Assembly: GCA_028864975.1 (NCBI GenBank)
Contig: JAGWLG010000005.1
Coordinates: forward strand, 32,001-96,000
Direction of reading: 5' to 3'
DNA from: Thermoplasmata archaeon
GTDB lineage: Archaea; Thermoplasmatota; Thermoplasmata; Lutacidiplasmatales; UBA184
Length of the DNA: 64,000 nt
The translations under genes were made by a program, and so were the position numbers. Position 1 is the first letter of the stretch. The number at the start of each line of letters is the position of its first letter. The notes under the pieces are model-generated. The model saw nothing but the letters and a program-made list of their open reading frames with translations, did no database searches and was not told the DNA's origin. Positions 9,775 to 27,861 of the stretch are shown here, piece by piece.

Positions 9775-9800
9775 CGCCCATCCACTCGGTCGTCGAGGGA

Positions 9801-9836
9801 CAAAAAGGCCTCTCGGAGATACGCCCGAGATACGCC
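9801..9836 (-). promoter_or_regulatory. TATA-like box (9801-9807) plus upstream GATACGCC direct repeat (9818-9825, 9829-9836)
   Basis: Two perfect 8-bp copies with 11-bp period; the same arrangement recurs at 15147-15165. Confidence 0.65.
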
Positions 9837-9908
9837 GTTCCGGGGTCGCAACACGGCGCGGGGAGCCTCCCACCCGCGTCGAAGGAGGGAGCCGAACGGT
9901 CCTCGTCC

Positions 9909-11279: not shown

Positions 11280-11333
11280 CCTGTAGGAGCGATATGGGCA
11301 TTTGCTCCCGGGGCCGGTACCCCACACCGGCGA

Positions 11334-11765
11334 TCAGGCCTTCTCTCTGAGGACGGCCGCCGTCTTGCTGAGCTCATCAGGGCTCGTAGGTTGGACCTTC
11401 ATCTCCCACCATTCCTGGAGTGCGAGGTCGTCCCCCTCCCGCCGGGGGACAACGTGGATGTGGAGGTGCCTCACGCTCTGCTCCGCCGATCTGCCACTCG
11501 AGACGAACAGATTGTTGCCCGTGACCTCGAGGACCTTGCGAAGGCGAAGAGCGGTCCACCGCGCGAGCTCGGCCACCTCCGCCCAATCCTCGGGAGTCAC
11601 CTCTGTGAGGTCCGCCGCATGGGCCTTCGGGATGACCAGCGAGTGTCCCCAGCTTATCGGGTTGACATCGAGGAAGGCGAGGGCGCGGGGCGACTCGCGG
11701 ATCCGGTGGGAAGGGATCTCTCCCTTGGCGATGGCGCAGAAGACGCAGGGGGGTCCGCTACCCAT
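11334..11765 (-). CDS. HIT family nucleotide hydrolase
   Basis: CVFCAIAKGEIP, AFLDVNPISWGHSLVIPKAH, HLHIHVVPR histidine triad. Confidence 0.95.
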   Translation of the reverse strand: MGSGPPCVFCAIAKGEIPSHRIRESPRALAFLDVNPISWGHSLVIPKAHAADLTEVTPEDWAEVAELARWTALRLRKVLEVTGNNLFVSSGRSAEQSVRHLHIHVVPRREGDDLALQEWWEMKVQPTSPDELSKTAAVLREKA

Positions 11766-11828
11766 GCAACCAAGAGCGAGCGGGGTGGCTTTGAACCTAC
11801 CGACATGGGCTCCTAAGCGAAGCTCGGC

Positions 11829-14800
11829 TCACCGCGCGCCAAACGGAGGCATCTCGAGACTCCTCTGACGGAGGGCGATCGCCCCGCTCTGAGGGTCGAA
11901 CTCGATCCTCTCGGAAAGGATCGTGGGGGGGTGTCGGACCTGTGTCGCCCCCCCTGCTGGGGTCGATGGCGACGGTTTCGAAGTGTCGCCCGGAGCCGGA
12001 GACGCGCCGGACGCAACAAGGCCCCCGGACGCTCTCCTTCGAGGGGGGCGAAGGAGGAGGAAACCCGCCAGAGCCGTGATCCCCACCGTACCAAGGACCA
12101 GTCCCGCCACGATGGCCGGGTCCCCAAGGGCCGAGCCCGACCTGGCCCCACCTGGCGCACTGACCTGGACGTACAGCACGCTGCTGATACCCCGTCGCCC
12201 CGATGCATCGGTCACCAGGACGAAGACCGCATACTCGCCCGTCATCGCGAACGTGTGCGTGGTGGAGAGCGAGGTCGAGCTGAACGTGGTCCCATCTCCG
12301 AAGTTCCAGAGAACCTGATACGGCACAGCTCCGCCCTGTACGACCGCCGTGAACTGCGTCGGACTGCCCTCTCGCGGGAAGGACGAGCTCCAGAAGCTGA
12401 CGTTCAGAGGAAGGTCCCCTCCCCCGCAGGATGTCGCGTTGACGATGGCGATCGCGGGAAGGGTCGCCGAGTCCCCCACTTGGTCCTCCACGGTGAGACG
12501 GGGATGATAGGTTCCCGGGACCGAGTAGTTGTACGAGATGGTCGCGGGGCCCTGGACCGTGCCCGCTCCGGTGAAGTTCCAGAGGAAGGTGTACGGGGGG
12601 ACTCCCCCCGTCGCGGAAGCCTGAAAGACGACGTTGACCGGCGCGCAGGCGCTGACGCTGGTCGCCGTGGCCGATCCCACGAGGACGGTGCCGTTCCCTC
12701 CCCCGCCGCTCTCGTTGACCTGGATGCGCAGCGACGCGATGGCGCTGTTCCCCCCGCTGTCGTTGACGAGAACGGTGGCCTCGTAGGTACCGGGGGTCGG
12801 GTAGGTATAGGCCGGGCAGGCCTCGGAAGACGCTCCCCCGTTCCCGAAGGTCCACGCATAGGTGTAGGGCGCGAGCCCTCCCGCGACCTGGGCACAGAAC
12901 TGGACCGCGAGCGGCGCCGTACCGCTCGTAGGCTCGCCCGAGACCTGGATCAGGACCGACGAGGAGCCGTTAGGGTCGACCGTGACCATCAACGCGGCGC
13001 TTGTCGCAGAGTTCCCGCGGGCATCCGTGACGAGAAGCTGGACAGTGAAAGTTCCGGTCGCGTAGATGGTGCAACTGAAGCTCGCGTTCCTGGGAGCGGT
13101 GCAGGGGACCCCCGTCCAAGCGAAGGCATAGGGGGGAGCGCCGCCGGAGGCCGCTCCGGTGAACTGGACGAGCAAAGGCGCGACCCCGGTCGTCGGATCC
13201 GCGGAAGCCGTGGCCGAGAGCGCTGGGGGTGAGGTGACGACGACGGTCACGCTGGTCGATGCGGAAGCGCCCGTCGAGTCGGTGGCCACGACGGTGGCGG
13301 TGAAGGTTCCTGGCGTCGAATAGATGTGACTCACCGTGGCCCCCGTGGCCGTCGAACCGTCGCCGAGGTCCCAGCTCCAAGAGTAGGGGGGCGATCCCCC
13401 CGCCGTGGCGGCGTCCAGGGTGCAGGGAGTTCCAAAGCCGACGGGGTCCGGCGTGGCGCTCGCCGCTACATGGAGCGTGGTCGAACTGGTCACGTTCAGC
13501 GTCCAGGTGTCACCAAAGAGGGTGGTCGACGTGCCGCCCCCGAAGTAGAGGACGTACCCCTCGGCGGGGTCGTAGGCCATGGCGGCGCCGGCACGGCCGT
13601 CGGGCATCGCCGTGAGCAGACTCGTCAAGTTCGTCCAGTTCGCTCCCGACAGGCTCCACAGCTCTACACAGCTGGTCGGGCCGCTGCAGGAATGCCGCGG
13701 CCACGTGTCCGTGAAAGGGAGGAGGACCCCTTGAGCGGCCGGATCGTCGACCATCTGCTCCCACCCCCCGAAGGGCGGCTCTGGGCTCCACGTATCGACC
13801 TTCCATGCCCCGTTCTGGTACAGACAGGTCCCGTAGGTGTCGTTCCCCCCTACGGAGACCAAGTAGGCGTCGGTCGAGTCGAAGGTGAGAGGGTCAAGGA
13901 GGGTGCAAGAGTCGACCGCAGCATCCTGCCACCAGGTCCCCGCGTGGTAGAAATCGAGCGGGCTCGCTGACGGGGTAGGGTTCGGGTAGCGCCCGATCAA
14001 GGCTACCGCAGCCGCGACCGGGTCGTAGGTAAGGTCCGGGGCGTACGACCATGACCCGAGGGACGAGGGAAGGGTCCCTTCCAGCTGCCACTGGTCATTG
14101 GAGAAGACCCAGACATCGTTCAGACCACGGACCGAGCTGTTGGACCCGCCCACGAGGAGGAGGTACCCGTCCGCAGCGTCGTACGTCATCATCGCGCCGT
14201 AGCGCGGTGAGGGGGCGGTCGAGAGTCCCGCCGAGAGGTTGGTCCAGACCCCGTGCTCGAAGGCCCACGTGTCGCCGAGGGGGGCGCTCCTCGCGCCCGC
14301 TCCCCCGAAGAGGAGCACGGCCTGCATGGCCGGGTCGTAGGCGGCCGCCGCCCCCGTCCGAGCCGAAGGGGAGGCAGGGGTGGTGAGGAGGGTCCAGGCA
14401 GCGGATACCGTCGGAGGCGTCACCGTGATGGTGAGATTGACGAACGCATGCCAAGGCTGGGCCTGGGTATCGATCGCCTCGAAGGTCACGAGATAGGTCC
14501 CTGGGGCTGTGAACGTGTGGGCACCGAAGGTCCAGGTGCCGGTCCGGGCGTAGCAGTAACTGTTGCTCGGCCCCGCCCTCGCCCCATCGCCGTAGTCGAA
14601 GCTGCAGTCATAGTAGTAGTAACCGGCGGGGTCCCCCCTCACGGAGGTCTCAAACCCGACGGTGAGCGGCGCGGGACCCGCCGTCCTCGAGGCGTTCGCC
14701 CAGGCTTGCAGAACGAAGGAGGGCGACACTCCCGCCGGAGCGCCGTCGGTTTGAGGACCCGATGGGCCCTCTACCACGCTGCCGCGCGCGAGCGTTTCTG

Positions 14801-15095
14801 CCCAAGGGGGTGCGAGCTGCGGTCCGAGCCGTTGACCCGGGAGCTGCCAGTGGTCGACCGGCTCCCACAGGTGGGCCATGGCGTCCGATCGGACCTCCGT
14901 GGGGGTCGGCGAGTGGGCAGCCAACGACAGCGCCCCCGACACCGGGTCCGATAGCGGGCGTCCTGCATGGACAGCAAGCCCCGCTGGGAGGATGCTCAGA
15001 AGGAGCATCATGACCAAGAGGAGCACCATCGCCGTATCGGTCGAGCTCCTGGAGGGTCTGGGGCAGCAGCCCATTGACGGGCGCGATGCATTCAT
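11829..15095 (-). CDS. PKD + Kelch-like beta-propeller + PKD array surface protein with C-terminal TM anchor
   Basis: Signal region MVLLLVMMLLLSIL, PSARxGAxxxYDxxxxxxLLFGG blades, about five further PKD units, TM AIVAGLVLGTVGITALAGFLLL; paralog of 6355-9774. Confidence 0.85.
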   Translation of the reverse strand: MNASRPSMGCCPRPSRSSTDTAMVLLLVMMLLLSILPAGLAVHAGRPLSDPVSGALSLAAHSPTPTEVRSDAMAHLWEPVDHWQLPGQRLGPQLAPPWAETLARGSVVEGPSGPQTDGAPAGVSPSFVLQAWANASRTAGPAPLTVGFETSVRGDPAGYYYYDCSFDYGDGARAGPSNSYCYARTGTWTFGAHTFTAPGTYLVTFEAIDTQAQPWHAFVNLTITVTPPTVSAAWTLLTTPASPSARTGAAAAYDPAMQAVLLFGGAGARSAPLGDTWAFEHGVWTNLSAGLSTAPSPRYGAMMTYDAADGYLLLVGGSNSSVRGLNDVWVFSNDQWQLEGTLPSSLGSWSYAPDLTYDPVAAAVALIGRYPNPTPSASPLDFYHAGTWWQDAAVDSCTLLDPLTFDSTDAYLVSVGGNDTYGTCLYQNGAWKVDTWSPEPPFGGWEQMVDDPAAQGVLLPFTDTWPRHSCSGPTSCVELWSLSGANWTNLTSLLTAMPDGRAGAAMAYDPAEGYVLYFGGGTSTTLFGDTWTLNVTSSTTLHVAASATPDPVGFGTPCTLDAATAGGSPPYSWSWDLGDGSTATGATVSHIYSTPGTFTATVVATDSTGASASTSVTVVVTSPPALSATASADPTTGVAPLLVQFTGAASGGAPPYAFAWTGVPCTAPRNASFSCTIYATGTFTVQLLVTDARGNSATSAALMVTVDPNGSSSVLIQVSGEPTSGTAPLAVQFCAQVAGGLAPYTYAWTFGNGGASSEACPAYTYPTPGTYEATVLVNDSGGNSAIASLRIQVNESGGGGNGTVLVGSATATSVSACAPVNVVFQASATGGVPPYTFLWNFTGAGTVQGPATISYNYSVPGTYHPRLTVEDQVGDSATLPAIAIVNATSCGGGDLPLNVSFWSSSFPREGSPTQFTAVVQGGAVPYQVLWNFGDGTTFSSTSLSTTHTFAMTGEYAVFVLVTDASGRRGISSVLYVQVSAPGGARSGSALGDPAIVAGLVLGTVGITALAGFLLLRPPRRRASGGLVASGASPAPGDTSKPSPSTPAGGATQVRHPPTILSERIEFDPQSGAIALRQRSLEMPPFGAR

Positions 15096-15522: not shown

Positions 15523-15764
15523 TCCTGTTCCGGGCTCTCGGGCACCGAGGGTCCGTGGTCTGCGATGACGAGGAGGGCCCCGGGACCCTGAGTCGTTGTG
15601 TCGTCCTCCACGGGGACGGGAGAGGTGGAGCACCCGAACCCCACTCGAAGAGATGCTGCTCCTCGGTCGGGCCCTTCTTCGGGGAGCATCTCCTCCCGTG
15701 AACACCTAATGCCCCTCAAGATTCTCCTACGAACGTGGGGCATTCCCCGTCAAGTTCCCGAGCG

Positions 15765-18700
15765 ATGAAGACCGGGACCCCGAGCTCGGACATCCCAGGA
15801 CTCTCGAGGTCTGCCCAGCTCGTGGGCCGGCGAGAGGTCATGGCCGAGCTCCGACGGATCCTTCTGGCCGCGAAGGAGGGGACCGGCTCCACGGTCGCGC
15901 TCACAGGCCCCGGTGGGATCGGGAAGACGAGCCTCCTCCGGTGGCTGGACGAGGAAGCGCGGGGCGAGGGCTTTGCAGTGCGGATGGGTTTCTGCTTGCA
16001 GGGGATCGACGCGCCTTTCTTTGCCTTCGAGCAGGTCTGGGGAGCATCGTCAGCCATACGTGACCCACCGGAGAGCCCGGCCGGGTCTAGTGCCGCGGCC
16101 GCGGCGGACGACGACGGGGCCCGGCTCGCGGCCGGGCCTGCGCAGCACGCCTCCATGGAACTCCGGCCGCAAGAGACGGGAGCCCTCCCGGGACGTCCTC
16201 TCCCTTTCCTCGGGCAGGCCGATGACGAGATCCCCCCGTCGGTCACGCTCCTACGATACCGGGAAGAGCTCGCGCAGGCCTCGAGCCAACGCCCGTTCCT
16301 CCTCCTGCTTGACGACCTGCAGTGGGCGGATCCCCAGTCCCTTCAGGCGCTGCAGTTCCTCGCTCGAAACCTGAGCGAGCTCCGCGCGTTCGTGGTCGTC
16401 GCCTTACGCGACGACCCGCACTCCCTCCAGGGGACCGACCCGGCCGAGGGACCGACGGTCGGGGAGACCATCGACCAACTGGTACGGGAGCGGACCCTTC
16501 GCCGCTTCTCCCTCTCCCCCTTCACTCGCGGAGAGGTCCGCCGTCTGGTCGCCAACGCGCTCGGGGGGGGCGTAGTCTCCGGAGAAAGCGAAGCGATGCT
16601 CCAGATCCTGACCGAACGAAGCGGAGGGATCCCCTACTACGTCGAGGAGCTCCTCCAGCAGCTGCGTTCGGAGGGCTACGTCGAGCGCGTCCGTGGAGGT
16701 TGGAAGCTCCGGCCCCCGGAGTCCTGGAAGGGTGCGCGTCGCTCGGGGGAAGGGCCCCGAGCGCCCATCCCCCTCTCGCTCCAGCGCCTGCTCAGGGCCA
16801 AGGTCTCGCCGCTCTCCCCGTCGGAGCGACGCGTTCTCGAGGTCGGGGCGGTGGTGGGGCTCCGCTTCGACCTTGAAGCCGTTGCCGCCGTCACGGGGCT
16901 CGGGGGTGCCGAGACCGAGTCGGTCTCCCGAAAGCTCTCGGAGGGGAGCCCGCTCCTGGTCCCCCCGGGAGGGGGTGGGGCTTCCTGGTCGTTCGTCCAC
17001 CCTCTGCTGTGGGAATACCTCCTCCACGAGCTGGCCCCGGGGTCCTTGCGGCGCATCTCTCAGGACCTCGCGACGTGGTGGGAGGTCCATCGCCCTCAGG
17101 AGATCGGGCGGATCGCGGGGTTCTACCATGCCGCTGGCGATGCGCGACGGGGACCGCCATCGATCCGTCGGGCGCTCGAGCATGCCCGACGGTCCCTCGC
17201 CTTGGACCAGGTCGAGACCTACCTGGGGTGGCTGCGGGAGCTGCTCCTGGAGCAGGGAACTTCGACGGCCCTCGTCGTCGAGGAGCAGTTGTTCATCGTC
17301 GACGCCCTGCGCTCGCTGGGAGGCTTCGAACATGGTCGTCGGGTCCTCGAGGGCCTCACCGACCTTCCGATCCCTCCCCCCCTGCGAGGCGAGGTCCTGG
17401 TCCGTCTGGCGGATCTGGTCAAGAACTACGATCCAGAGCGGAGCCAGCGACTCCTGACCGACCTCGAGCAGGGGACTTCGGTCGCCGGGCTGGTGCCCTA
17501 CGGGACCCTGCTGGGACGGATCCGCGTCGCCCAGGCCTATCTCCGAAACGAACAGATGGACTACTCCAAGAGCCTGGAGCTCGGCAGCGAGGCGCTCTCC
17601 CTCCTCGGGCCGAAGGGCGACCCGTACGAACGATCTCGTGTGCTCTCGTACCGCGCGTCCGCCCTGGCCAATCTCGGCCGGTTCGAGGAGGCGGCCGCCG
17701 CCTCAGGGGGGGCCCAGGAGATCGCCGAGAACGCGGGGTTGATGGGGATCCTCGAGCAGGCCAAGGTGGGCGCCGCCTATGCTCAGCTCGCCCGGGGCCA
17801 CGTTCGAGAGGCCCACGAGGACTTCCTTGCCGCCACCTCGCTCGCCCGACGGTCCGGCCACATCCCCCTCGTAGTGCACGGGCTGCTCTGCGACTGTCTT
17901 TCCCTCCTCGAGTTGGGTCGGTCCGACGAAGCGCGAAGCTTCGCGGAAGAGGCGAAGCTCCTCGCACGGCAGTTCGGCATGCAACGGTACGTGGCCGAGG
18001 CGGAGGGCACTTTGGCCGCTATCGCCCTTCGTCGTGGTGACACCATCAACGCGGTCCGGCACGGGAAGATCGCGCTGGGCTTGTCCAGTGGCATGGGGGA
18101 GGGCCAGCGGGTCAGCTTCCGTCTGACCCTGATCCGCGCTTACGCCGCCAGGGGGGAGGGGGCGGCGGCGCTGCGGGAGCTCTCCGAGGTCCTTCCCCCC
18201 GGGACGGACCCGAAAAGCGCCAGCTATCCGGACATCGCGCTCACGGGCGCTGAGGCCCTTGAGGCCAACGGACGGTCGGAGGAGGCCCGGGCGTTCCTGG
18301 AGGCCTCCCTCTCAAGGTCGCGCGAGATGCGGCTGCCCCTCATCGAAGCGGACTCGCTCCTCGCGCTCGCGGTCTGGGAGGAGCGCCACGGGGGGGCGGC
18401 GGCCTCGAGTCGACGCCGAAAGGAGGCTGAAGCTATGCTGGCACCGCTCTCGCTCTCCCTCCATGGGCGCCCACCGCCCCTCCTCTCCACCCTGCATGCC
18501 TCCCGCCGCCCTCGCCCCTCCCGGAGCGAGCGAAGGACCCCCGGCCTCTCCACGGGAGACCTCGTCCTCCTGCATCTCCAGCGCAACCTCCGCCACAGCG
18601 CCCTCCTGAGCGACGGAGGGGCCGCACCGGTGGCCCTCACGCAGGAAGGGATCGGAGAGGAACTCGGGCTGTCTCAGGGACGTTTGGCCGCCCCGCTCCA

Positions 18701-18830
18701 ACGGCTCGTGCAACGAGGGCTCGTGAAGTGCGCGGTGTGCCACGTGCAAGGGTTCGAAAGGCGCCGAAAGGCCTACGCGCTCACTCGCAAAGGACTTCTT
18801 GTGGCGAAGGGGCTCCAACCCCGCCGTTGA
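15765..18830 (+). CDS. STAND-class (AAA_16-like) ATPase + helical TPR-like region + C-terminal winged helix transcription regulator
   Basis: LVGRREVM, Walker A GPGGIGKTS, Walker B LLLLDDLQWAD, SGGIPYYVEEL, FVHPLL, helical repeats, C-terminal LTQEGIGEELG..KAYALTRKG. Confidence 0.85.
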   Translation: MKTGTPSSDIPGLSRSAQLVGRREVMAELRRILLAAKEGTGSTVALTGPGGIGKTSLLRWLDEEARGEGFAVRMGFCLQGIDAPFFAFEQVWGASSAIRDPPESPAGSSAAAAADDDGARLAAGPAQHASMELRPQETGALPGRPLPFLGQADDEIPPSVTLLRYREELAQASSQRPFLLLLDDLQWADPQSLQALQFLARNLSELRAFVVVALRDDPHSLQGTDPAEGPTVGETIDQLVRERTLRRFSLSPFTRGEVRRLVANALGGGVVSGESEAMLQILTERSGGIPYYVEELLQQLRSEGYVERVRGGWKLRPPESWKGARRSGEGPRAPIPLSLQRLLRAKVSPLSPSERRVLEVGAVVGLRFDLEAVAAVTGLGGAETESVSRKLSEGSPLLVPPGGGGASWSFVHPLLWEYLLHELAPGSLRRISQDLATWWEVHRPQEIGRIAGFYHAAGDARRGPPSIRRALEHARRSLALDQVETYLGWLRELLLEQGTSTALVVEEQLFIVDALRSLGGFEHGRRVLEGLTDLPIPPPLRGEVLVRLADLVKNYDPERSQRLLTDLEQGTSVAGLVPYGTLLGRIRVAQAYLRNEQMDYSKSLELGSEALSLLGPKGDPYERSRVLSYRASALANLGRFEEAAAASGGAQEIAENAGLMGILEQAKVGAAYAQLARGHVREAHEDFLAATSLARRSGHIPLVVHGLLCDCLSLLELGRSDEARSFAEEAKLLARQFGMQRYVAEAEGTLAAIALRRGDTINAVRHGKIALGLSSGMGEGQRVSFRLTLIRAYAARGEGAAALRELSEVLPPGTDPKSASYPDIALTGAEALEANGRSEEARAFLEASLSRSREMRLPLIEADSLLALAVWEERHGGAAASSRRRKEAEAMLAPLSLSLHGRPPPLLSTLHASRRPRPSRSERRTPGLSTGDLVLLHLQRNLRHSALLSDGGAAPVALTQEGIGEELGLSQGRLAAPLQRLVQRGLVKCAVCHVQGFERRRKAYALTRKGLLVAKGLQPRR

Positions 18831-18948: not shown

Positions 18949-21900
18949 ATGCGCTTCTCGACGGAACTCCGGTCGAACTCCCTGCCCGCGATCTCGCTCT
19001 TGCTCTTGATCATCGGGCTCCTTCTGGTCAGCGGGGCGCTGGTCGGCGGAACTTCCTCCCTCTTCAGCTCCCGGGAAAGCGCGGCGGTCCTCCCCACCGC
19101 GCTCCATCCCTCGACCGCGGCGGGGGCCTCGTCCCTCGCCGCGACCCCTTCCTACAGCAACGGCGCGACCTACCACTTCGACGGGAGCAACGGGAACGAT
19201 GGGCGGTCGGTCTGGGGGGTCAGCCCCTCGAGCTGCCAGTCCGTGGCGGGGTCGCGCCTGTGCATCCCCACCTCGGAAGGCTTCCTGGCCTACGATAACG
19301 GGGCTAAGGACCCCAACGGAGTCTCCGTCAACGCCCCGTGGTACATGGGCTCCTGCCGATGGAGCTGGGGAGGGAACGACTACGGGAGCGCCCCACCCTG
19401 TCTGGACATCTCGGGCACTTCCGGGCTGCCTCACGTCTGCATCCTCGCCAGCAATGGTCGCTCGGTCTCGGCCTACATCGATGACTCCGGCCCGGCCCCC
19501 TTCACGGGTCGCTACGGGGCCGGCGCGGCGACGATGAGCCATCTCGGGCTCTGGAACAATGCGGACCCCGACCCCGGTTACATCTATGCCGGGAGCTCCA
19601 AGGCCTTGGACGTCCACGATGGGAACGGCGCTTTCTGGGTCGATTTTCTAGGCTTCACAACGGCCGGTACGGGCCACTCCTGCACTGGGGGCGGCGGTAG
19701 CGGGGGAGGGAGTGGAGGAGGGAGCGGCGGGGGTGGAGGAAGCGGGGGACACTGCAACCTCTACGGCCCCCGGGTGTGCCATCCGCTAGATTCCAACCCG
19801 ACCCCAGGCGCGTGGTACCACATCCGGAGCGGCGACACGCTCTCGGGGATCGCATCCCGAGCGTACGGCCGTGCCAGCCTCTACACCATGATCGCGCACG
19901 TCGACCACATCGCCAATCCCGGTCTCATCTCGTCGGGATACTACCTCTGCATCCCTCATTCCAACGGCGGGGTCTGCCGGGCCGCGGGGAGCGGGGGTGG
20001 AGGTGGAGGCTCCGTCGCGTGCAACCTCTACGGCCCGCACAAGTGCACGCCCCTCTCCACCGCACCTTACCCGGGTGACTGGTACCGGGTCCACCGCGGA
20101 GACACACTCGGTTCGATCTCGCAGCATGCGTACGGGAACTCGAACAAGGCGTCGTTCATCGCCAACAAGGACCGGATCACCCACCCGAAAGTCCTGACCT
20201 CGGGCTGGTACCTCTGCATCCCCAAGACCAGTGGTGCCCTGTGCAAGGGTGGGCCGTCGGGCGGGGGCGGCGGGGGCGGGCACGGCGGTGGCGCGCACCC
20301 CACGTTCATGCCGTGGGTCTGCCAGTTCTGTTCCTGGTCGGGTTCGCGGCCCGCCTTCGCGAAGGAGTACGCGACCCTCGCCGGGGACATCCCGTCCATT
20401 TCCCAGGAGGGCTACTACCTCACGAGCTCTGGGGGGTTCGGCTCTCGCGGATACGCGGGGACGCTCAACGACCTGACGCCTTGGGCGAAGCAGCATCGCT
20501 CGGCGATGTTCCCGATGATCACCTCGTGCAACATATACGACCTGAACGCGTTCCTGACCTCCCCGTCGCTCTGGACCCCCTTCATCCACCTGGCGGTCGG
20601 CACGGCGAGCGCCAACGGCTACGCCGGCTACAACGTCGATTTCGAACCCGACCCCGGCTGCAACGGGGGGTCCGTCAACGGCAGGGATGCGGCCGCCTAT
20701 TCACAGTTCATGAGCTCGTTCGCGAGCGCCCTCCACGCCAAGGGGCTCAAGCTCCAGGGCGACTTCGCCCTCTGGAGCCCCAACTTCTGGTCCCTATCGA
20801 ACATGGGCCGCACCGGCGTGGACGACTGGGTCCTGATGGATTACACGTGCTCCGTGAGCTCGTTCCGAACGGCCGCGTCGACCGCCTTGCACTCGATCCA
20901 CGTCTCCCACTTGGGGCTGGGGCTGGACCCCGAGTACTGCGCCGGGTCTCCGCACGAGCTCTCCGACCTTCAGCAGGAGGTTCGTGCGGCCCAGCAGGAC
21001 AAGGTCAACTTCCTCGCCTACTGGGCGCTGGATGACGGCCCTGCCGCCATGCCCAGCGGGCTCTGGCCGACGATCCACGCCTTCCTCCTCGGCGGAAGCT
21101 CTGGGGGAGGGGGCGGTGGTGGCACGGGCGGCGGCCAGTGCGGAGGAAAGACGTACTGCCGCAGCGCGGTCGTAGCCTACGCCGACAAGTACTGGGACCG
21201 CGCGGTTTCGGACGGCTACTTCTTCTGGGACAGCTTGTGCCCGACGGGTCCCGGCTACCCGGCCCACCTAGGGAACGCGCACTACCTCTCCGGGTGCTTG
21301 CAGTACCACGGGGTCGACTGCGCCCACTTCGTCTCCAGCGCGATCGCGGCAGGTGGCATCTCCTTCTCGCGTGACTCGCACCGCTATGGAGGCTCGATCA
21401 CCGGTGACGTCAACGCCCAGGACCTGGTGAACTACCTCGTCTTCTCCGGCCTGGCCTACGTGGTCTCAAGCCCCTCCCATCTCCAGGTCGGCGATGTCGT
21501 CGGCTACTACGAGGGTTCGGGGGGCGGCTGGGGCATCGGTGGGACCGTGAACCACGTCGCGGTCGTGGACGCCACCGGTAGTGGCGGCCCGTGGGTGGAC
21601 GCCCACACGGGCTCCCAGCACCATGTCTACTGGAGCATGGGCGGCGGGATGGGTCCGTGGGTCCTGGTCCACATCAAGAGCCAGCGACCGTTCGTGAGCA
21701 GCGCGAGCTCGACCCCCACTTCGTCGGCCGCAGGGTCGGTCGCGACGAAGTCGGGTTCCGCACCGACCCATCTTTGGGCGATGGTCGAGGGCGGGGTCCT
21801 GACGACGCCGGTCAGCGTCCGTCTATCCTCCCCTTCCGAGGTCGTGAAGGTCGAGCAAGGGCCAAAGGGAGCTCCCACCGCTGTTCCTCTCCTGTGGGCG

Positions 21901-22080
21901 GAGCTCGCCGTGCTGGTCGGGTCTCCTTTCGGAGCGTTCCTGCTCAGCGTCGAGGTCGCAGCTCTCGCAGCCCTCGGGATGCTCGTGGTCATCTCTGGGA
22001 GAAAGAGTGGGACCACTTTGTCCTGTGCGCCTCGCGAGCTCGAGCCCAGGTCCGGGCGAAGTGCTCCCGGCGGGATTTGA
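18949..22080 (+). CDS. Secreted, membrane-anchored multi-domain putative peptidoglycan/chitin hydrolase (DPBB-like + 2 LysM + GH18 + Amidase_6-like)
   Basis: GAGGAG RBS and ATG 18949; signal peptide; LysM GDTLSGIA and GDTLGSIS; GH18 GYNVDFE and VLMDY; amidase GVDCAHFVS and NHVAVV; Gly linkers; C-terminal hydrophobic segment. Confidence 0.85.
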   Translation: MRFSTELRSNSLPAISLLLLIIGLLLVSGALVGGTSSLFSSRESAAVLPTALHPSTAAGASSLAATPSYSNGATYHFDGSNGNDGRSVWGVSPSSCQSVAGSRLCIPTSEGFLAYDNGAKDPNGVSVNAPWYMGSCRWSWGGNDYGSAPPCLDISGTSGLPHVCILASNGRSVSAYIDDSGPAPFTGRYGAGAATMSHLGLWNNADPDPGYIYAGSSKALDVHDGNGAFWVDFLGFTTAGTGHSCTGGGGSGGGSGGGSGGGGGSGGHCNLYGPRVCHPLDSNPTPGAWYHIRSGDTLSGIASRAYGRASLYTMIAHVDHIANPGLISSGYYLCIPHSNGGVCRAAGSGGGGGGSVACNLYGPHKCTPLSTAPYPGDWYRVHRGDTLGSISQHAYGNSNKASFIANKDRITHPKVLTSGWYLCIPKTSGALCKGGPSGGGGGGGHGGGAHPTFMPWVCQFCSWSGSRPAFAKEYATLAGDIPSISQEGYYLTSSGGFGSRGYAGTLNDLTPWAKQHRSAMFPMITSCNIYDLNAFLTSPSLWTPFIHLAVGTASANGYAGYNVDFEPDPGCNGGSVNGRDAAAYSQFMSSFASALHAKGLKLQGDFALWSPNFWSLSNMGRTGVDDWVLMDYTCSVSSFRTAASTALHSIHVSHLGLGLDPEYCAGSPHELSDLQQEVRAAQQDKVNFLAYWALDDGPAAMPSGLWPTIHAFLLGGSSGGGGGGGTGGGQCGGKTYCRSAVVAYADKYWDRAVSDGYFFWDSLCPTGPGYPAHLGNAHYLSGCLQYHGVDCAHFVSSAIAAGGISFSRDSHRYGGSITGDVNAQDLVNYLVFSGLAYVVSSPSHLQVGDVVGYYEGSGGGWGIGGTVNHVAVVDATGSGGPWVDAHTGSQHHVYWSMGGGMGPWVLVHIKSQRPFVSSASSTPTSSAAGSVATKSGSAPTHLWAMVEGGVLTTPVSVRLSSPSEVVKVEQGPKGAPTAVPLLWAELAVLVGSPFGAFLLSVEVAALAALGMLVVISGRKSGTTLSCAPRELEPRSGRSAPGGI

Positions 22081-22164
22081 ACCCACGTTGGAGGGTTTCC
22101 TCGGCGGAGTACGTCGCTTCGCCTCGAAGGCCCTCTATCCTTGACCGGACTAGACTACGGGAGC
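22062..22164 (-). tRNA. tRNA-Glu (TTC) with 28-nt intron at 37/38 (BHB motif); C at position 33
   Basis: Acceptor GCTCCCG/CGGGAGC + A73, D arm GTCT/GGAT, anticodon stem GAGGG/CCCTC, T arm GTGGG-TTCAAAT-CCCGC, BHB central helix CCTT/GAGG; TTAAG box about 28 bp upstream. Confidence 0.85.
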
Positions 22165-22256: not shown

Positions 22257-22901
22257 ATGACCTCCAAGAAAAGGCCCAACGTGCCCCACAAGGATGCCCC
22301 CGCCGCAGATCCCCTGGCGGGATCGATGAACGCCGGGCTCGGGGACCTGGTGGGGGGCTTGGTCGGGGGGATCCTCGAGCAGGTGAAGCAGCTGGCAGGA
22401 TGGGTCGGCCATCCTCTGGCCCAGCCGCTCGACACGGCCGAGGCCCAACTCACGAAGGGGGCCACCGGCGGCTCGGTCTCTTCCGCCGAGATGGCGAAAG
22501 GCCTCGAGGTCCAGACCCGGGGATTGACGGGGGCCACGGTCCATGTGGTCGGGAGCGACACCTCCTCGGGGGTCAACGTGGGTCAGGGTGCGGACTGTGT
22601 CTGGGTCGTTCTCGTGGGGGATGAGGAAAGGTTGGACCACGCGTTCCAAGCTCTTAGGACCGAGATCTCTGAAGAGAACACGAAGTACCCGGCTTGCCAT
22701 GATGTGGTCTTCTGGACCCGCAAGTGGGACGCCACCGAGTGGTCGAAGGCCTTCGGGGCCGGCCTGGGCCCGCTCGCCGCCAAGCCGCTCTGGGCCAAGC
22801 TCTGGGATGCGAACGGCACCCTCGTGGGTCCGGTGGCGAGAGCACCCCCGGCGCTCGTGCCGATGGGAGACCTGAAGCTCGATCTCAGTGGCGGGGCCTA
22901 A
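22257..22901 (+). CDS. Hypothetical protein
   Basis: 214-aa ORF with normal composition, convergent with the HPS gene (4-bp overlap of stops). Confidence 0.6.
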   Translation: MTSKKRPNVPHKDAPAADPLAGSMNAGLGDLVGGLVGGILEQVKQLAGWVGHPLAQPLDTAEAQLTKGATGGSVSSAEMAKGLEVQTRGLTGATVHVVGSDTSSGVNVGQGADCVWVVLVGDEERLDHAFQALRTEISEENTKYPACHDVVFWTRKWDATEWSKAFGAGLGPLAAKPLWAKLWDANGTLVGPVARAPPALVPMGDLKLDLSGGA

Positions 22902-24202
22902 CCCACCTTCTCCCATCGCTCGAGCTTCTGGACCGAGGAGAGGGTCGATCCTCGCTTGATCTCCTCTCTCACGCGGTTCTCGTGCTCGAGCACGTCGAGC
23001 GCACGGTTCGCGATCTCCTGGGCCCGTTCTCGGGGCACCACGACCACGCCGCTCGCGTCCCCGACGACCCAGTCGCCGGGTCGGACCTTCTGGCCCCCGC
23101 AGACGATCTCGACACCGATCTCCCCGTGCCCCTTCGCCTCCCCCGCATCTGGGGCGATGTTCCGTGAGAAAAGGGGGAACCCCAGGTCCATGATCGAGTC
23201 GATGTCCCGGGCGGCCCCGTCGATGACCACCCCCGCCAACCCGCGTCCGTGGGCCGACCAGCTCGCAAGCTCGCCCCACATCCCCGTGTGACCCCCTCCG
23301 GCGTCGACGACGATCACGTCACCCGGCTGGGCACGGTCGATGGCCTCCACGGGTTTCGCCCAGTCTCCGTCCATCGTCCGCACGGTGAGGGCGGGCCCCA
23401 CCATCTTCGTGCGGAAGTCCTTGAGGTGCGGAAGGATCCCATGCATCGCGCCCTTCCGCTGGAGGGCGTCGGTGACGTTCGGGGCCGAGACCTTGAGAAA
23501 GGCCTCGCGGATCTCGGTGGCCCCATACTTTCGGAAGAGCTCGGTCTTGACCGGGGTCAACGTGTCGAGGGCCTTCCGAACGTTCCGCGTCGCCTCGGTG
23601 ATCTTCTCGGCCTTCGTGATCGCCCCTCCCACGATCACCACGCGAGCCCCCGCTTCGGCGGCCTTCGCCGCGGTCTCCGAGTTCAGCCCCCCCGCGACGG
23701 CGACGGGGAGTGGGGAGGCCTTGCAAAGCTCACGCAGCGCTTCGAAGGGGTCGACCCCACGCATCTGCTGGTCGATGCCGATGTGGAGGCAGACATAGGC
23801 GGCCCCAAGCTCGTGGGCCCTCTTGGCGCGCGCGATGGGGTCGGCGACCGCCAGAAGGTCGACCACGACCTGGGCCCCGTACTTCTCCCCGCCGCGGACC
23901 GCGTCCGCGATGGTGTCGTCATCGCTGGCCCCCAGGACCGTCACCAGGTCGGCCCCCGCCTTGGCCGCGATCTCCACCTCGAAGGAGCCGGTGTCCATGA
24001 TCTTCATGTCGGCCACGACGCGCTTGTCTCGGAACGCCTTCTTGAGCTCTCGGACCGCGTTCAGGCCCTCGCTCTTGATGAGCGGAGTGCCGGCCTCCAC
24101 CCAGTCGGCGCCTCCCTCCACGGCCTCCTTCGCGGCCTGAAGGGCGCGGTGGAGGTTCTCGAAGTCCAGGGCCACTTGGAGGACCGGTCGATCGGCGGGC
24201 AT
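22898..24202 (-). CDS. hxlA: Bifunctional 3-hexulose-6-phosphate synthase / RraA-like domain protein
   Basis: LQVALD, WVEAGTPLIKSEG, VADMKIMDTG, VAVAGGLN (HPS TIM barrel) fused to GPALTVRT..GDVIVVD..WGELAS..GVVIDGAARD..GDWVVGDASGVVVVP (RraA/HMG aldolase). Confidence 0.9.
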   Translation of the reverse strand: MPADRPVLQVALDFENLHRALQAAKEAVEGGADWVEAGTPLIKSEGLNAVRELKKAFRDKRVVADMKIMDTGSFEVEIAAKAGADLVTVLGASDDDTIADAVRGGEKYGAQVVVDLLAVADPIARAKRAHELGAAYVCLHIGIDQQMRGVDPFEALRELCKASPLPVAVAGGLNSETAAKAAEAGARVVIVGGAITKAEKITEATRNVRKALDTLTPVKTELFRKYGATEIREAFLKVSAPNVTDALQRKGAMHGILPHLKDFRTKMVGPALTVRTMDGDWAKPVEAIDRAQPGDVIVVDAGGGHTGMWGELASWSAHGRGLAGVVIDGAARDIDSIMDLGFPLFSRNIAPDAGEAKGHGEIGVEIVCGGQKVRPGDWVVGDASGVVVVPRERAQEIANRALDVLEHENRVREEIKRGSTLSSVQKLERWEKVG

Positions 24203-24227
24203 GAGGAGCTTCTCACACCCCCTTGCC

Positions 24228-24333
24228 CAAAGACCTTTCCCGTGGCCCCGCCGCTGGCACCCCTTCGACGCTCGAAAGGTCTAAGCCTGGCCAGGAGCCG
24301 TACCGGGACGGCTCGCAAAGAGCCTGGCCAGGC
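24228..24333. promoter_or_regulatory. Divergent promoter region with symmetric BRE/TATA-like elements, two CCTGGCCAGG palindromes and a hairpin
   Basis: AGACCTTTC (24231-24239) and GAAAGGTCT (24274-24282) are inverted; palindromes at 24286-24295 and 24323-24332; GAGCCGT/ACGGCTC stem at 24295-24314. Confidence 0.55.
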
Positions 24334-24334
24334 C

Positions 24335-25063
24335 ATGGACAGACCGATCATCCTCGACGAACCCTCGCGGCTTCCTGTGGGTGGCCACGCGCTGTCGATG
24401 TTCGCGTCGGACCAGGAAGGAGCCGATCACGCGGCGTCGTTCCTCTCTGGCGGCAAGGAGCCCGCGTCCTCTTCGTTCTGGGTAGGAGAGGCGTCAGCGT
24501 TTGAGGTGTACCAGAGGGCGGTGGAACGTTCGGCGCCACGCTTTGTGGAGAGCCTCCACGCACTGAAGGGGGCTCACGTGGAGTGGGTGGGGACCGACCG
24601 CCGTGCGCTTCGTCCCATCCCCGAGGTGCTCCAGTTCCTGCAGGAGCATCCGCAAGGACTGAGCGCGGGGGCCAACACGCTCAGTCACTTCTGGAGTCCC
24701 ACCGACATGCCCGCCTTCCTCGAGTACGAGAACTGGATCCAACAGCTTCCCCACGCCGAGGCCCGGCTGCTCTGTCCCTACGACCTGCGTCGTATCCCTG
24801 TGGCCTCCGCTCCGACCGTTGTCTCGACCCTCGCACGTCGGCACGACCACCTCGTCCTTTCTCGTACCCAGGATCCTTTGCTGACGATGCTCGAGCTCTT
24901 CCTCTTTCGAAAGGAGGCGGAGGTGCCCCCCTCCCTTCGACCGGCCCTCGAACGTGGGCTCGAGGACCGTTGGGTCCAGAGCGCCCCCGAGGGAGGGTTC
25001 GAGTGGACCGCCCGAGGAGAGCACTTCGTCGAAGCACTGGCCCGTTCCAAGAGATGGAGATAG
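24335..25063 (+). CDS. MEDS-like sensory domain protein with possible short C-terminal wing
   Basis: GGHALSMFAS..FLSGG start, LLCPYDLRRI motif typical of MEDS domains, C-terminal GFEWTARGEHF; start at ATG 24335. Confidence 0.6.
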   Translation: MDRPIILDEPSRLPVGGHALSMFASDQEGADHAASFLSGGKEPASSSFWVGEASAFEVYQRAVERSAPRFVESLHALKGAHVEWVGTDRRALRPIPEVLQFLQEHPQGLSAGANTLSHFWSPTDMPAFLEYENWIQQLPHAEARLLCPYDLRRIPVASAPTVVSTLARRHDHLVLSRTQDPLLTMLELFLFRKEAEVPPSLRPALERGLEDRWVQSAPEGGFEWTARGEHFVEALARSKRWR

Positions 25064-25181: not shown

Positions 25182-25688
25182 TTGTTCAATCGGGACTATT
25201 CGGGATCTCCCTACGTGATGGAGACCGTCCGGCCGATCGAGATCCCGGTGATCGCCCAGGTCAAGCGACGGCTGGCCGAGGGGCAGTTCGCCGAGGCGGT
25301 GACCCTCGCCTACCACACCGCGGTCCTGGACCTTCAACGGGCCTACCGGACCCAGTTCCCCGCACACTGGACCCACCTCGACGTGGTCCAGTGGACCCGT
25401 CGCAACAACCTCGGCATCGTCGCGGATTGCATCTCGAAGCTCTATCAGTCCTACGAGCCCGTCCGATACGGTCGCGCATCGGACGTGCAGAGGGCGGACA
25501 TCGTGAGCCCGCTCACCAGCCTGTACGCCCAGAGCCCCCTCTGGAGGCTCTACGCTCCGAGCAGCGTCGCCGGTTACGGGTACGGGAACGGCTACGGGAA
25601 CGGGGGGGGCGGTGCCTATGCGAACGCCCTAGGCTACTCCGGCTATGGTCGGTACGGGGAGGAGCGGTCGCTTCCGCCACCACCATGA
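25182..25688 (+). CDS. DUF4129-like protein (MoxR operon member)
   Basis: AVTLAYHTAVLDL..KLYQSYEPVRYG; stop overlaps the next ATG; start uncertain. Confidence 0.6.
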   Translation: MFNRDYSGSPYVMETVRPIEIPVIAQVKRRLAEGQFAEAVTLAYHTAVLDLQRAYRTQFPAHWTHLDVVQWTRRNNLGIVADCISKLYQSYEPVRYGRASDVQRADIVSPLTSLYAQSPLWRLYAPSSVAGYGYGNGYGNGGGGAYANALGYSGYGRYGEERSLPPPP

Positions 25689-26209
25689 GCGCCGACCTGG
25701 GTTCGTTCCTCACCGCGCTCTTCACCGACCCGGTCTACGGGCTGCCGCTCTTGATCTGGGCGATCGTGGGGATCGTCTGGCTCCTGTGGGGCCACGGCTC
25801 GCTCCCCCCCGCGCTCCTGCCGTATCGGGCCCACCGCGTCCGGTCCGTCGACCCGGTCTCGTCCATGTACTGGGCGCTCGCCGAGAAGCGATATTCCGAG
25901 ACCCTGCTCTTCGCCTACCAACGCCTCGACGCCGCCTTCCAGCGGCGCTACGGGATCAGCATCCGGTTCATCCCATGGCGACGCAAGCACCAGCTCCGCT
26001 ACGGCATCGAGGACCCCAAACCGTTCGAACGCGCGGTCCGCCTCATGGTCAAAACGCTCGATGGCGCGACGACGCTGGAGGGCAAGCCCGCCATCCGCGC
26101 GGTCGCGCACATGCTCCGACCCTACCGCGAGAGGAAGATGTTGGATCGCTTCCACCGGGTCATGAGCGACCTGGATTGGATGTTGCCCTTCCTGGAGGGT
26201 TCGGCATGA
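25685..26209 (+). CDS. Membrane protein (N-terminal TM, DUF4129-like helical domain)
   Basis: ATG 25685 overlapping the upstream stop; TM YGLPLLIWAIVGIVWLLWG; stop overlaps the MoxR ATG. Confidence 0.7.
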   Translation: MSADLGSFLTALFTDPVYGLPLLIWAIVGIVWLLWGHGSLPPALLPYRAHRVRSVDPVSSMYWALAEKRYSETLLFAYQRLDAAFQRRYGISIRFIPWRRKHQLRYGIEDPKPFERAVRLMVKTLDGATTLEGKPAIRAVAHMLRPYRERKMLDRFHRVMSDLDWMLPFLEGSA

Positions 26210-27846
26210 GCCCAAAGCCCGCCGCGCGGCCTCCGGACCCCCCTGCGAAGACGCAGCCCGCTCCCGACACTGCGAAAGCCCCTCCACCTCAGGCCCCCGC
26301 GCCGGTCTCTACCCCAACCCCTCCGACCGACCCCACGAACGAGGCGAAGTCCCCGTCCGCGAACCCTCCTAACGACGAGGAGGAGGAAGAGGCGGGGGAG
26401 GGCGATGCCTCCGAGGAGGCCGAGGAGGTGGAAGTGGAAGCTGAACCGTCGCCGACCGAGCGGCCGGGGTCCGCAGCGGCGGCCCCGACACACCAGGCTC
26501 GTGTGCCGATCCGCTCGGCCCACTGGGAGCTCCATCCGGTGGCCCCGCCCACCGTGTTCGTCGCGAAGCGCATCACCCCCCCAGGAAGCGCCGGTGCACC
26601 CGCATCCGAGGCTCCCCAGACCCCCTCTCCGGCGGTCGCCGCAACGGCCACTTCCCCACCGTCGTCCCCCGCTTCATCTCCCGCCCCCCCCTCCGCGTCC
26701 TCAGCGCGACCTCCCCCACCGCCTCCGGTCGCGCCGCCATCCTCGACGAGCGCGAGGCCCCCTGCGCAGTCCGCCTCCGCTGCCACCATATCGGCCGAAC
26801 TCGCGGTTCCGGCCGCCCCGTCGCGGGCCGGTGCGGCCACGCCGGGTCCCCGCGCGGCCCCTGCCTCTCCCTCGTCCGAGGCCGCGTCGGACGCCCAAGC
26901 CGTCCTCAAGCGGGTCCAGACGAACATCGGGAACGTCGTGATCGGCTACGAGGGGATCGTGCGCGCGATGCTCGTGGCCATCGCCGCCAACGGCCACATC
27001 CTCCTCGAAGGCGTTCCCGGTCTCGCGAAGACCTACCTGGTCCGAGCCTTCTCCCGGTCGCTGACCCTCACCTTCCGTCGCATCCAGTTCACCCCGGATA
27101 TGCTCCCCGCCGACATCCTGGGGACCGTCGTGCTGGACCCCCGGACGCAGATGTTCGAGTTCCGTCCCGGTCCCATCTTTGCGAACGTCATCCTGGCTGA
27201 CGAGATCAATCGGGCCCCGCCCAAGGTCCAATCCGCTCTGCTCGAGGCGATGCAAGAGCGGCAGGTGACGGTGGAAGGGGTGAGCTATCCGCTGCCGAGC
27301 CCGTTCGTCGTGATCGCGACGGAGAACCCCGTCGAGCTCGAAGGGACCTATCCCCTCCCGGAGGCCGAGCTCGACCGCTTCCTCTTCCGGATCCTTCTAG
27401 GTTATCCGAGCGCCGAGAACGAGCTGCGACTCCTCAAGCAGCGCACGGTGACCAACGACCCCACCTTGACCGAGGGGATCCTCGGGGCCCCCGCGCTCAT
27501 CGCGCTCCGGGACCAGGCCCAGGCGATCCATGTGCATGACGACATCTTGAGGTACATCGCCGCGCTCCTGCGAGAGACGAGGACCGACCCCCGGGTGCTA
27601 TCGGGTGCGTCGCCCCGCGCCGGGGTCCAACTGTTGCTGGCCGTGAAGGCCTCGGCGCTCTTCGCGGGCCGCCCGTTCGTCATCCCGGACGATGTGAAGG
27701 ATCTCGCCTTCGATGTCCTCAACCACCGGCTCGTTCTGCGACCCGAGGTCCTCGCTCTGCACTCCGGTGGAGGGAAGGACGATGGGGGTCGCACGCTCCA
27801 GGAAGTGGTCTTTTCCCTCATCAACAAGGTCGCCGTGCCCTGGTGA
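26206..27846 (+). CDS. MoxR family AAA+ ATPase with long Pro/Ala-rich N-terminal extension
   Basis: HILLEGVPGLAKT, RIQFTPDMLPADILG, LADEINRAPPKVQSALLEAMQERQVT, ATENPVELEGTYPLPEAELDRF; start ATG 26206. Confidence 0.95.
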   Translation: MSPKPAARPPDPPAKTQPAPDTAKAPPPQAPAPVSTPTPPTDPTNEAKSPSANPPNDEEEEEAGEGDASEEAEEVEVEAEPSPTERPGSAAAAPTHQARVPIRSAHWELHPVAPPTVFVAKRITPPGSAGAPASEAPQTPSPAVAATATSPPSSPASSPAPPSASSARPPPPPPVAPPSSTSARPPAQSASAATISAELAVPAAPSRAGAATPGPRAAPASPSSEAASDAQAVLKRVQTNIGNVVIGYEGIVRAMLVAIAANGHILLEGVPGLAKTYLVRAFSRSLTLTFRRIQFTPDMLPADILGTVVLDPRTQMFEFRPGPIFANVILADEINRAPPKVQSALLEAMQERQVTVEGVSYPLPSPFVVIATENPVELEGTYPLPEAELDRFLFRILLGYPSAENELRLLKQRTVTNDPTLTEGILGAPALIALRDQAQAIHVHDDILRYIAALLRETRTDPRVLSGASPRAGVQLLLAVKASALFAGRPFVIPDDVKDLAFDVLNHRLVLRPEVLALHSGGGKDDGGRTLQEVVFSLINKVAVPW

Positions 27847-27861
27847 GGAGAGGGCGCGCGC

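Follow-up and report, generated by a model that had tools for sequence, protein, structure and literature searches.

What would an archaeon that makes no peptidoglycan of its own do with a protein built from the modules of bacterial cell wall hydrolases? The question is raised by contig JAGWLG010000005.1 of a Thermoplasmata archaeon (GenBank assembly GCA_028864975.1), of which we analysed positions 32,001 to 96,000, a stretch of 64,000 nucleotides (nt) hereafter called the window, and in particular by the 1043-amino-acid (aa) protein, P0001, encoded at window positions 18949-22080. The combined evidence from domain profiles, structural models and comparison with related archaea indicates that P0001 is probably a peptidoglycan hydrolase displayed on the surface of a wall-less archaeon and directed at bacterial murein, in which two LysM modules, a predicted GH18 barrel and an Amidase_6 peptidase domain are held on a membrane anchor.

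Modules of the encoded protein

A stop-free frame spans the whole of 18949-22080, and its translation agrees with the single 1043-aa chain proposed earlier from the letters of the DNA alone (the sequence-only reading). The following features were assigned, all of them on the plus strand:

18949-22080, plus: whole coding sequence, 1043 aa, P0001 (open frame and translation; GGAG, resembling a ribosome-binding site, and an AT-rich box directly 5′).
18967-19068, plus: N-terminal hydrophobic segment, residues 7-40, probable Sec signal or signal-anchor (Kyte-Doolittle peak 2.82).
19111-19683, plus: N-terminal Cys-rich domain, residues 55-245 (no family match; DPBB-like as a lead).
19816-19956, plus: LysM domain 1, residues 290-336, Cys pairs on either side (PF01476, E 4e-7, 2 stretches).
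20077-20229, plus: LysM domain 2, residues about 377-427 (LysM stretch 377-427 of NCBIfam PRK11198, E 2e-14; second Pfam LysM stretch).
20302-21093, plus: predicted GH18-type (beta/alpha)8 barrel, residues about 452-715 (family profile, AlphaFold2, Foldseek).
20632-20646, plus: N562-V-D564-F-E566, putative catalytic D-x-E at the end of strand beta4 (conservation in 41 relatives; model).
21154-21645, plus: Amidase_6 / NlpC-P60-superfamily cysteine peptidase domain, residues 736-899 (PF12671, E 5e-13, above cut-off).
21319-21321, plus: putative catalytic Cys791 in DCAHFVS, the motif starting at nt 21316 (invariant in 11 Amidase_6 domains).
21553-21555, plus: His869, in NHVAVV from nt 21550 (invariant partner of Cys791).
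21604-21606, plus: His886 (invariant partner of Cys791).
21664-21903, plus: Ser/Thr/Ala/Pro-rich stalk, residues about 906-985 (sequence reading).
21904-22002, plus: C-terminal transmembrane (TM) anchor, residues 986-1018, followed by a basic cytoplasmic tail (hydropathy peak 2.5).

The signal peptide, the poly-Gly linkers and the C-terminal membrane anchor of the sequence-only reading were all recovered. Residues 7-40 form the hydrophobic segment of the probable signal, and a close homologue, JAKAAX010000014.1_5, is labelled 'Sec' in the S2 table of Strock et al. (PMC12352652). Four Gly-rich linkers were located by script at residues 247-267, 349-354, 438-448 and 719-729; a word search with the whole of P0001 returned nothing, probably swamped by poly-Gly words. 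At the C-terminus, a Ser/Thr-rich stalk, a single TM helix and a basic tail beginning 'SGRKSG...' have the layout of a C-terminally anchored archaeal surface protein, and the TM-plus-basic-tail arrangement is common to six related proteins (paralogs C64, C15, C59 and C94 of the same genome and the relatives in genomes G002 and G003). No archaeosortase-type sorting signal was matched in the NCBIfam scan of P0001. The anchor is found in the proteins of genus g1, while the forms in genera g3 and g8 are devoid of it and look secreted.

Two of the module types were assigned by Pfam well above threshold. PF01476 scored 30.2 bits, the cut-off being 20.9, and was found in two copies, with Pfam and NCBIfam placing the starts at 19816 and 20077, close to the 19813 and 20080 read by eye; within the genome, LysM is limited to P0001 and paralog C64. 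PF12671 (Amidase_6) matched residues 736-899 with E 2e-11 in the whole protein and 5e-13 in the excised domain (44.4-50 bits against a gathering cut-off of 23.2), and the positions given earlier for DCAHFVS and NHVAVV were exact. Cys791, His869 and His886 were invariant across the 11 aligned Amidase_6 domains (A3), which are of archaeal and metagenomic origin. The A3 profile matched the NlpC/P60 endopeptidases Spr, CwlO and MepS at about 7e-4 to 1e-3 and RipA at E 0.035, with the Cys and His motifs aligned in each case, in keeping with the papain-like Cys-His relation to wall enzymes that had been suggested. A word search with the Amidase_6 domain gave a single match.

The domain between these modules was silent in Pfam, PF00704 giving no match to P0001 or to its excised residues 445-720 even at E 10. 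An exhaustive HMMER search retrieved 222 relatives. Of 41 relatives that were aligned (A1), 20 matched PF00704 at E up to 1 (best 2.8e-8), G560 and D564 were invariant, and E566, M630, Y632 and W692 were at least 90% conserved. The A1 profile matched the solved GH18 chains 4q6t (E 5e-14) and 5jh8 (E 2.7e-12), as well as YdhD (3cz8; E 1.5e-10), YaaH (4s3k; E 3e-9) and SleL (4s3j; E 3e-8), and 'GYNVDFE' of P0001 was aligned to 'G.N.DFE' or 'HFDFE' of solved GH18 chains. The DFE of 4q6t, 5jh8, YdhD and YaaH falls on D564-F-E566, the D-x-E of the family, and the two upstream Asp of DxxDxDxE are replaced in P0001 (A559, N562) as they are in the same four chains.

Structure prediction gave a concordant picture. 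AlphaFold2 run on A1 returned a model with a predicted local distance difference test (pLDDT) score of 91.9 and the eight strand-helix units of a (beta/alpha)8 fold, whose fourth strand (116-121) ends at D564-x-E566. The best Foldseek matches of the model were 4q6t, SleL of B. megaterium and B. cereus, 5jh8 and YdhD (TMq up to 0.75), SleL occupying ranks 2 and 4-6, and every one of the top 50 was either a GH18 chain or a chitinase-like protein. At about 265 aa the barrel is short, and it is without the alpha+beta insertion of 4q6t and SleL, the C-terminal half being gapped in the profile alignments. By sequence and by structure the SleL/YaaH/YdhD subgroup is among the nearest, and two LysM modules stand upstream of the barrel. 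Cluster annotations yielded hardly any names, one member being called 'spore germination protein YaaH'. Together, the A1 profile, the AlphaFold2 model, Foldseek and the aligned D-x-E establish the middle domain as a predicted GH18 barrel despite the silence of Pfam, so that the sequence-only reading was correct in calling it GH18, SleL/YaaH-like and degenerate at the first Asp, with NVDFE at exactly 20632-20646. D564/E566, M630/Y632 and W692 would fit the substrate-assisted cleavage after N-acetylglucosamine (GlcNAc) known from GH18 enzymes, that is, a glucosaminidase.

Domain by domain, then, the assignments stood for LysM and Amidase_6 in Pfam and for GH18 in Foldseek, but not for GH18 in Pfam, nor for the N-terminal domain. 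The latter had been called DPBB-like, a claim that we could not substantiate. Residues 55-245 had no Pfam or PHROG match, and a search of 186 genomes from the order and a class-wide sample of 301 gave a single homologue (G005:C34, 47% identity). A metagenome scan with the N-terminal-domain alignment found no relatives, and a word search with the domain returned nothing. AlphaFold2 from the 2 sequences reached a pLDDT of 31, and hhalign against five Streptomyces DPBB_1 domains gave E 0.16 with the proposed motif aligned. Language-model features alone point to this fold, 26 of the 30 best named matches being RlpA-like DPBB clusters at a score of 0.92, which on calibration counts as a lead only. 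A DPBB-like domain is possible but unproven.

The one homologue, P0152 (L029:2052-5594, plus strand), is a fusion of the N-terminal domain to Amidase_6 and a C-terminal anchor, and it carries about eight beta-propeller-like 'GYWLVGxDGGVFSFGxAxFYGS' repeats. Within the part of the gene that encodes the N-terminal domain, contigs of several sequencing runs break at 19142-19193 and 19306-19325, and each break is bridged by another run.

Origin of the gene, its paralogs and its interchangeable heads

The gene is native to a Thermoplasmata genome of the order UBA184 (Lutacidiplasmatales). Bacterial contamination and misassembly, either of which would have refuted the sequence-only reading by its own terms, were both rejected on the basis of uniform GC, an intron-bearing tRNA, the relatives in congeners, the paralogs and bridging contigs. 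GC is uniform at 0.66-0.70 around the hydrolase gene, and the value of 68% found here matches the figure of about 69% given for Lutacidiplasmatales, the order that contains UBA184 (PMC9287336). The tRNA (22062-22164, minus strand; Rfam, 46 bits) extends over the final 19 nt of the hydrolase open reading frame (ORF) on the opposite strand; its anticodon loop has 34 nt against 6 in the model, a 28-nt excess at the archaeal intron position that identifies an archaeal-type intron, and it was missed by ARAGORN in bacterial mode. Close relatives at 58-69% identity were present in all three congeners searched, and the relatives' contigs are named 'Thermoplasmata archaeon' and 'Candidatus Sysuiplasma'. 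One of these contigs, JAKAAX010000014.1 (locus L011), is classed as Thermoplasmata; UBA184; UBA184; JAKAAX01 in the S2 table of Strock et al. (PMC12352652). Between the upstream regulator and the downstream HPS-RraA gene, with the hydrolase gene in the middle, all junctions are spanned jointly by contigs of other runs, taken from metagenomes of mine drainage and soil, with 0-2 differences; runs X3 and X4, whose contigs have identical lengths, are perhaps one data set filed twice and were not counted as two independent studies.

The relatives in genomes G001-G003 and paralog C64 begin with a different Cys-rich domain of about 180 aa, marked by 'AYQESSF...GILQ', which was located at the following positions:

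L018:7887-8444 (= G000:C64), minus strand: lysozyme-like head, sub-threshold Pfam.
L011:2585-3145, plus strand: lysozyme-like head, sub-threshold Pfam.
L009:2885-3460, plus strand: lysozyme-like head, sub-threshold Pfam.

The only Pfam matches of this head, all of them sub-threshold, were to Phage_lysozyme2, SLT_3 and SLT of the lysozyme clan. PHROGs gave nothing for either type of N-terminal domain, and a PDB profile search with the lysozyme-like head returned a poly-Gly artefact only. The 'AYQESSF...GILQ' head may be an undescribed lysozyme-like family.

Paralog C64 has the same LysM/GH18/Amidase_6 core as P0001. Three further anchored paralogs were found in the genome:

G000 C15:1545-4754, minus strand: GH18-like and PKD, anchored.
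G000 C59:145691-148561, minus strand: GH18-like and PKD, anchored.
G000 C94:19329-21860, plus strand: Amidase_6 and PKD, anchored.

Across the order, 15 of the 186 genomes matched the Amidase_6 profile and 13 the GH18-like one, both profiles occurring in genera g1, g3, g8 and g10 and neither in any of 150 genomes of the dominant genus, which belongs to the same family. The GH18-like and Amidase_6 genes are an accessory trait of few lineages.

The likely target: bacterial murein, chitin or the archaeal envelope

The partners of the Amidase_6 domain in related archaea bear most directly on the substrate. In the sister family, two genomes of genus g8 encode Amidase_6 fused to a GH73 Glucosaminidase domain and SH3_3 repeats:

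L036:1848-3998 (G025), minus strand: secreted, GH73 + Amidase_6 + 2-3 SH3_3.
L038:1424-3349 (G029), plus strand: secreted, GH73 + Amidase_6 + 2-3 SH3_3.

This architecture is not among the Thermoplasmatota rows of the S2 table of Strock et al. in the part covered here (PMC12352652). All four genomes of genus g8 have an Amidase_6 domain, and one of them, G028, combines SH3_3 with a GH18-like barrel. Further afield, Amidase_6 is fused to a GH25 lysozyme and SH3_3 in Aciduliprofundum (SH3_3+Amidase_6+GH25 in Aciduliprofundum boonei WP_008084055.1), in Natronoplasma, a genus of the PWKY01 order, and in a metagenome-assembled genome of Lokiarchaeia. A GH25 lysozyme of A. boonei has reportedly been shown to be antibacterial. 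The pattern of one peptidase core with swappable glycan-cutting and wall-binding partners is the hallmark of modular murein hydrolases, and the lysozyme-like heads are suggestive, not significant, as evidence for murein. The GH73/SH3_3 fusions, the sub-threshold lysozyme-like heads and the GH25 fusions favour murein over chitin, as the sequence-only reading would have it.

The murein in question is unlikely to be the archaeon's own. Own murein or pseudomurein was considered as a target and rejected, since the genome has one Mur-ligase-like match, SEDS was not found in it, and LysM occurs in only two of its proteins; GH73 was likewise not found there. This agrees with the earlier statement that Thermoplasmata make no peptidoglycan.

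If P0001 acts as its modules suggest, the N-terminal signal would export the chain, the C-terminal TM helix and Ser/Thr-rich stalk would tether it to the archaeal membrane, the flexible poly-Gly linkers would give the modules reach to a nearby wall or fragment, and the two LysM modules would dock to GlcNAc-containing glycan strands. The GH18 barrel would then cleave after GlcNAc by the substrate-assisted route (D564/E566), as an endo-N-acetylglucosaminidase like SleL, while Amidase_6 (Cys791-His869-His886) would cleave the stem peptide or the peptide-glycan link and the N-terminal head could serve as a third glycan-directed module. What the data show are the identities of the domains, the conservation of their catalytic residues, the anchor, the native origin of the gene and the comparative pattern; substrate, bond specificities and purpose we infer. 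Being anchored at its C-terminus, the protein would act on debris or at contact range, and the purpose may be contact-range lysis of neighbouring bacteria or the harvest of wall debris; we lean toward lysis or peptide harvest over amino-sugar catabolism.

Several observations weigh against bacterial murein as the target. The top structural neighbours of the barrel, 4q6t and 5jh8, are annotated as chitinases; the best solved match of the LysM modules is the chitin-binding effector Ecp6; and LysM with GH18 suits chitin equally well. Two of the four GH18-like paralogs in the genome have PKD only and no wall-binding module, so the barrel need not be murein-specific. The searches made found no characterised member of Amidase_6, and P0001 and its close relatives are known as sequences and predicted models. 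A membrane tether limits reach into a bacterial wall. Searches of the 89.6%-complete genome for MurQ, NagA, GH20 and GH3 were negative (an archaeal chitin route was not searched for), which leaves amino-sugar feeding by the usual routes without support.

A rival reading is a surface degrader of chitin or fungal walls, in which LysM would bind chitin, GH18 would act as an endo-chitinase, the peptidase would trim wall glycoproteins and the products would nourish the archaeon where fungi abound, in acid soil or mine drainage. The classical chitinases belong to GH18, and chitinases make up most Foldseek matches past the first few; the LysM modules of P0001 are framed by Cys pairs, and disulfide-framed LysM is typical of the chitin-binding LysM of fungi and plants; the PKD plus GH18-like paralogs resemble chitinase architectures, and the habitat is soil and mine drainage. 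We nonetheless regard this as unlikely, because the partner Amidase_6 belongs to a superfamily of peptidoglycan peptidases and is fused in related archaea to the murein-specific GH73, GH25 and SH3b, because same-genus relatives carry the lysozyme-like head (at sub-threshold scores only), and because the barrel has neither the insertion domain of chitinases nor the first two Asp of DxxDxDxE, like SleL/YaaH. The enzymes GH20, GH3 and NagA for the use of chitobiose and GlcNAc, not found in the genome, tell against a chitin diet as well.

Remodelling of the archaeon's own envelope or matrix (GlcNAc-containing N-glycans, glycoproteins, exopolymers) would accord with a protein that is membrane-anchored rather than released and that belongs, in this genome, to an expanded group of PKD-rich surface proteins with anchors; some GH18 endo-beta-N-acetylglucosaminidases cleave N-glycan cores, and two A1 relatives match GH85 weakly. 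It is quite unlikely all the same, as genes missing from all 150 genomes of the dominant genus and from most genera of the order are a poor fit to a core envelope function, the modules found as partners in related archaea (LysM, SH3b, GH73 and GH25) are directed at murein, and murein-type synthesis genes were not found. A non-catalytic adhesin or lectin, whose enzyme-like domains would only bind glycans, fastening the cell to the surface of bacteria or fungi, appears very improbable: GH18 does have many lectin-like inactive members, chitinase-like proteins are among the Foldseek matches and the first two Asp of the motif are replaced, yet D-x-E, Met/Tyr and the beta8 Trp are conserved across the 41 relatives and the Cys-His-His triad is invariant, residues of a kind usually lost in inactive relatives.

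Returning to a hydrolase of bacterial murein as the preferred reading, a broader proposal may be considered with due reserve. We think it doubtful, though conceivable, that JAKAAX01 and a few other UBA184 lineages deploy anchored surface lysins in which a GH18+Amidase_6 core is combined with swappable binders (LysM/PKD/SH3b) and glycan-cleaving heads for contact lysis of bacteria. The heads would be lysozyme-like in relatives and DPBB-like in P0001, the latter making P0001 a three-enzyme protein, and the lifestyle would be a bacteriolytic or predatory one not yet described for Thermoplasmata.

Neighbouring genes and relation to known wall hydrolases

Directly upstream of the hydrolase gene and on the same strand (15735-18830, plus) lies a gene for a protein with an AAA_16/STAND NTPase, a MalT-like TPR region and a MarR-type winged helix-turn-helix (wHTH). 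A conserved regulator-hydrolase unit was considered and dropped: the STAND-TPR-wHTH gene and the HPS-RraA gene do not adjoin the homologues in the loci compared, and we therefore propose no conserved sensor-hydrolase unit. Other genes of the window were as follows:

6355-15095, minus strand: three adjoining genes for Kelch/PKD-rich surface proteins of 1185, 472 and 1088 aa.
22898-24202, minus strand: fusion of HPS (OMPdecase family) and an RraA-like domain.
23249-25063, plus strand: ORF with a MEDS domain, beside the HPS fusion; given the overlap with the HPS gene, the true start of this long ORF probably lies much later.
25645-29226, plus strand: MoxR AAA+ ATPase with an N-terminal extension of roughly 420 aa, then a DUF58/VWA protein.

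PKD-rich genes flank the homologues in other genomes too, with similarity at the domain level only.

Among bacterial enzymes, SleL/YaaH (PDB 4s3j, 4s3k) share the order LysM-LysM-GH18 with P0001 and, together with YdhD (3cz8), are among the nearest solved relatives of the archaeal barrel by profile and fold, at about 12-19% identity. The 'HFDFE' of YaaH corresponds to 'NVDFE' of P0001, D-x-E being kept and the upstream Asp replaced in both. Unlike SleL/YaaH, P0001 has a shorter barrel without the SleL insertion and is extended by an N-terminal head, Amidase_6 and a membrane anchor; and whereas SleL/YaaH are spore cortex-lytic enzymes of Bacillus, the host of P0001 is not a spore former. With the NlpC/P60 peptidases (Spr/MepS, CwlO, RipA) the protein shares a papain-like Cys-His core, in which the motifs 'DCxxFV' (Cys) and 'HVxxxx' (His) are common to P0001 and Spr/CwlO-type peptidases, the match of the solved chains to A3 being weak (E about 7e-4). 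The literature groups Amidase_6-type proteins, the family to which the P0001 domain belongs, with this superfamily: Amidase_6 has been placed with Tae3, a peptidoglycan amidase effector of the type VI secretion system (PMC10318531), and YhbB and YjcM of B. subtilis are members without characterisation (PMC10653849). As for the RlpA-type DPBB lytic transglycosylases, 'NGRSVSAYIDDSGP...' of P0001 aligns with 'G.S..V.I.NECP...DLS' of the Streptomyces DPBB_1 domains and RlpA-like clusters are nearest to the N-terminal domain by language-model features, but there is no significant sequence or profile match and membership is unproven.

Among archaeal proteins, A. boonei WP_008084055.1 is the counterpart in Thermoplasmatota that likewise combines Amidase_6 with a glycan-cleaving domain and a wall-binding module. 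It has a GH25 muramidase and SH3b where P0001 has GH18 and LysM, is listed with no membrane anchor and comes from a different archaeal order; a GH25 lysozyme from A. boonei provides the archaeal example in Metcalf et al. (2014, eLife; PMC4241558), on antibacterial gene transfer.

The nearest comparison is with the modular peptidoglycan hydrolases that Strock et al. (2025, PLoS Biol; PMC12352652) described in about 5% of archaea and prominently in Thermoplasmatota. Their S2 table has an archaeal peptidoglycan hydrolase 'LysM+Amidase_6, Sec' of the UBA184 genus JAKAAX01: JAKAAX010000014.1_5, the same-genus relative of P0001 on the contig of locus L011, with 58-61% identity. Given this listed close homologue, P0001 is a further member of the published class: it carries Amidase_6, which is on the catalytic list of that survey, and LysM, in an archaeal genome. 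Like the hydrolases listed there, it has a catalytic and a wall-binding Pfam domain, a signal peptide and the same inferred target, bacterial murein.

The listed entry records no more than LysM and Amidase_6, as Pfam is blind to the GH18 barrel; in the supplementary files of the paper, as far as covered here, PF00704 was not found, and term searches of the paper found neither a membrane anchor, nor an N-terminal head, nor head replacement (PMC12352652). New here are the GH18 barrel missed by Pfam-based surveys, the C-terminal anchor and the replaceable N-terminal head, and the GH73 + Amidase_6 + SH3b forms in the sister family. Domain-based surveys thus under-describe archaeal wall hydrolases, a whole GH18 barrel being invisible to Pfam and the heads having no above-threshold family, in a class of archaeal enzymes breaching bacterial walls that was documented only in 2025 and of which few are characterised. 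If active, P0001 would be a bifunctional, perhaps trifunctional, lysin of an acid-adapted, uncultivated archaeon of soil and mine drainage, would bear on archaeal-bacterial antagonism and on the turnover of bacterial necromass, and might be a source of acid-stable lytic enzymes. The hydrolases characterised by Strock et al., Woldo and Danwoldo of Halogranum, are enzymes of the M23 and GH73 types and are secreted (PMC12352652), whereas P0001 is an anchored, contact-range form.

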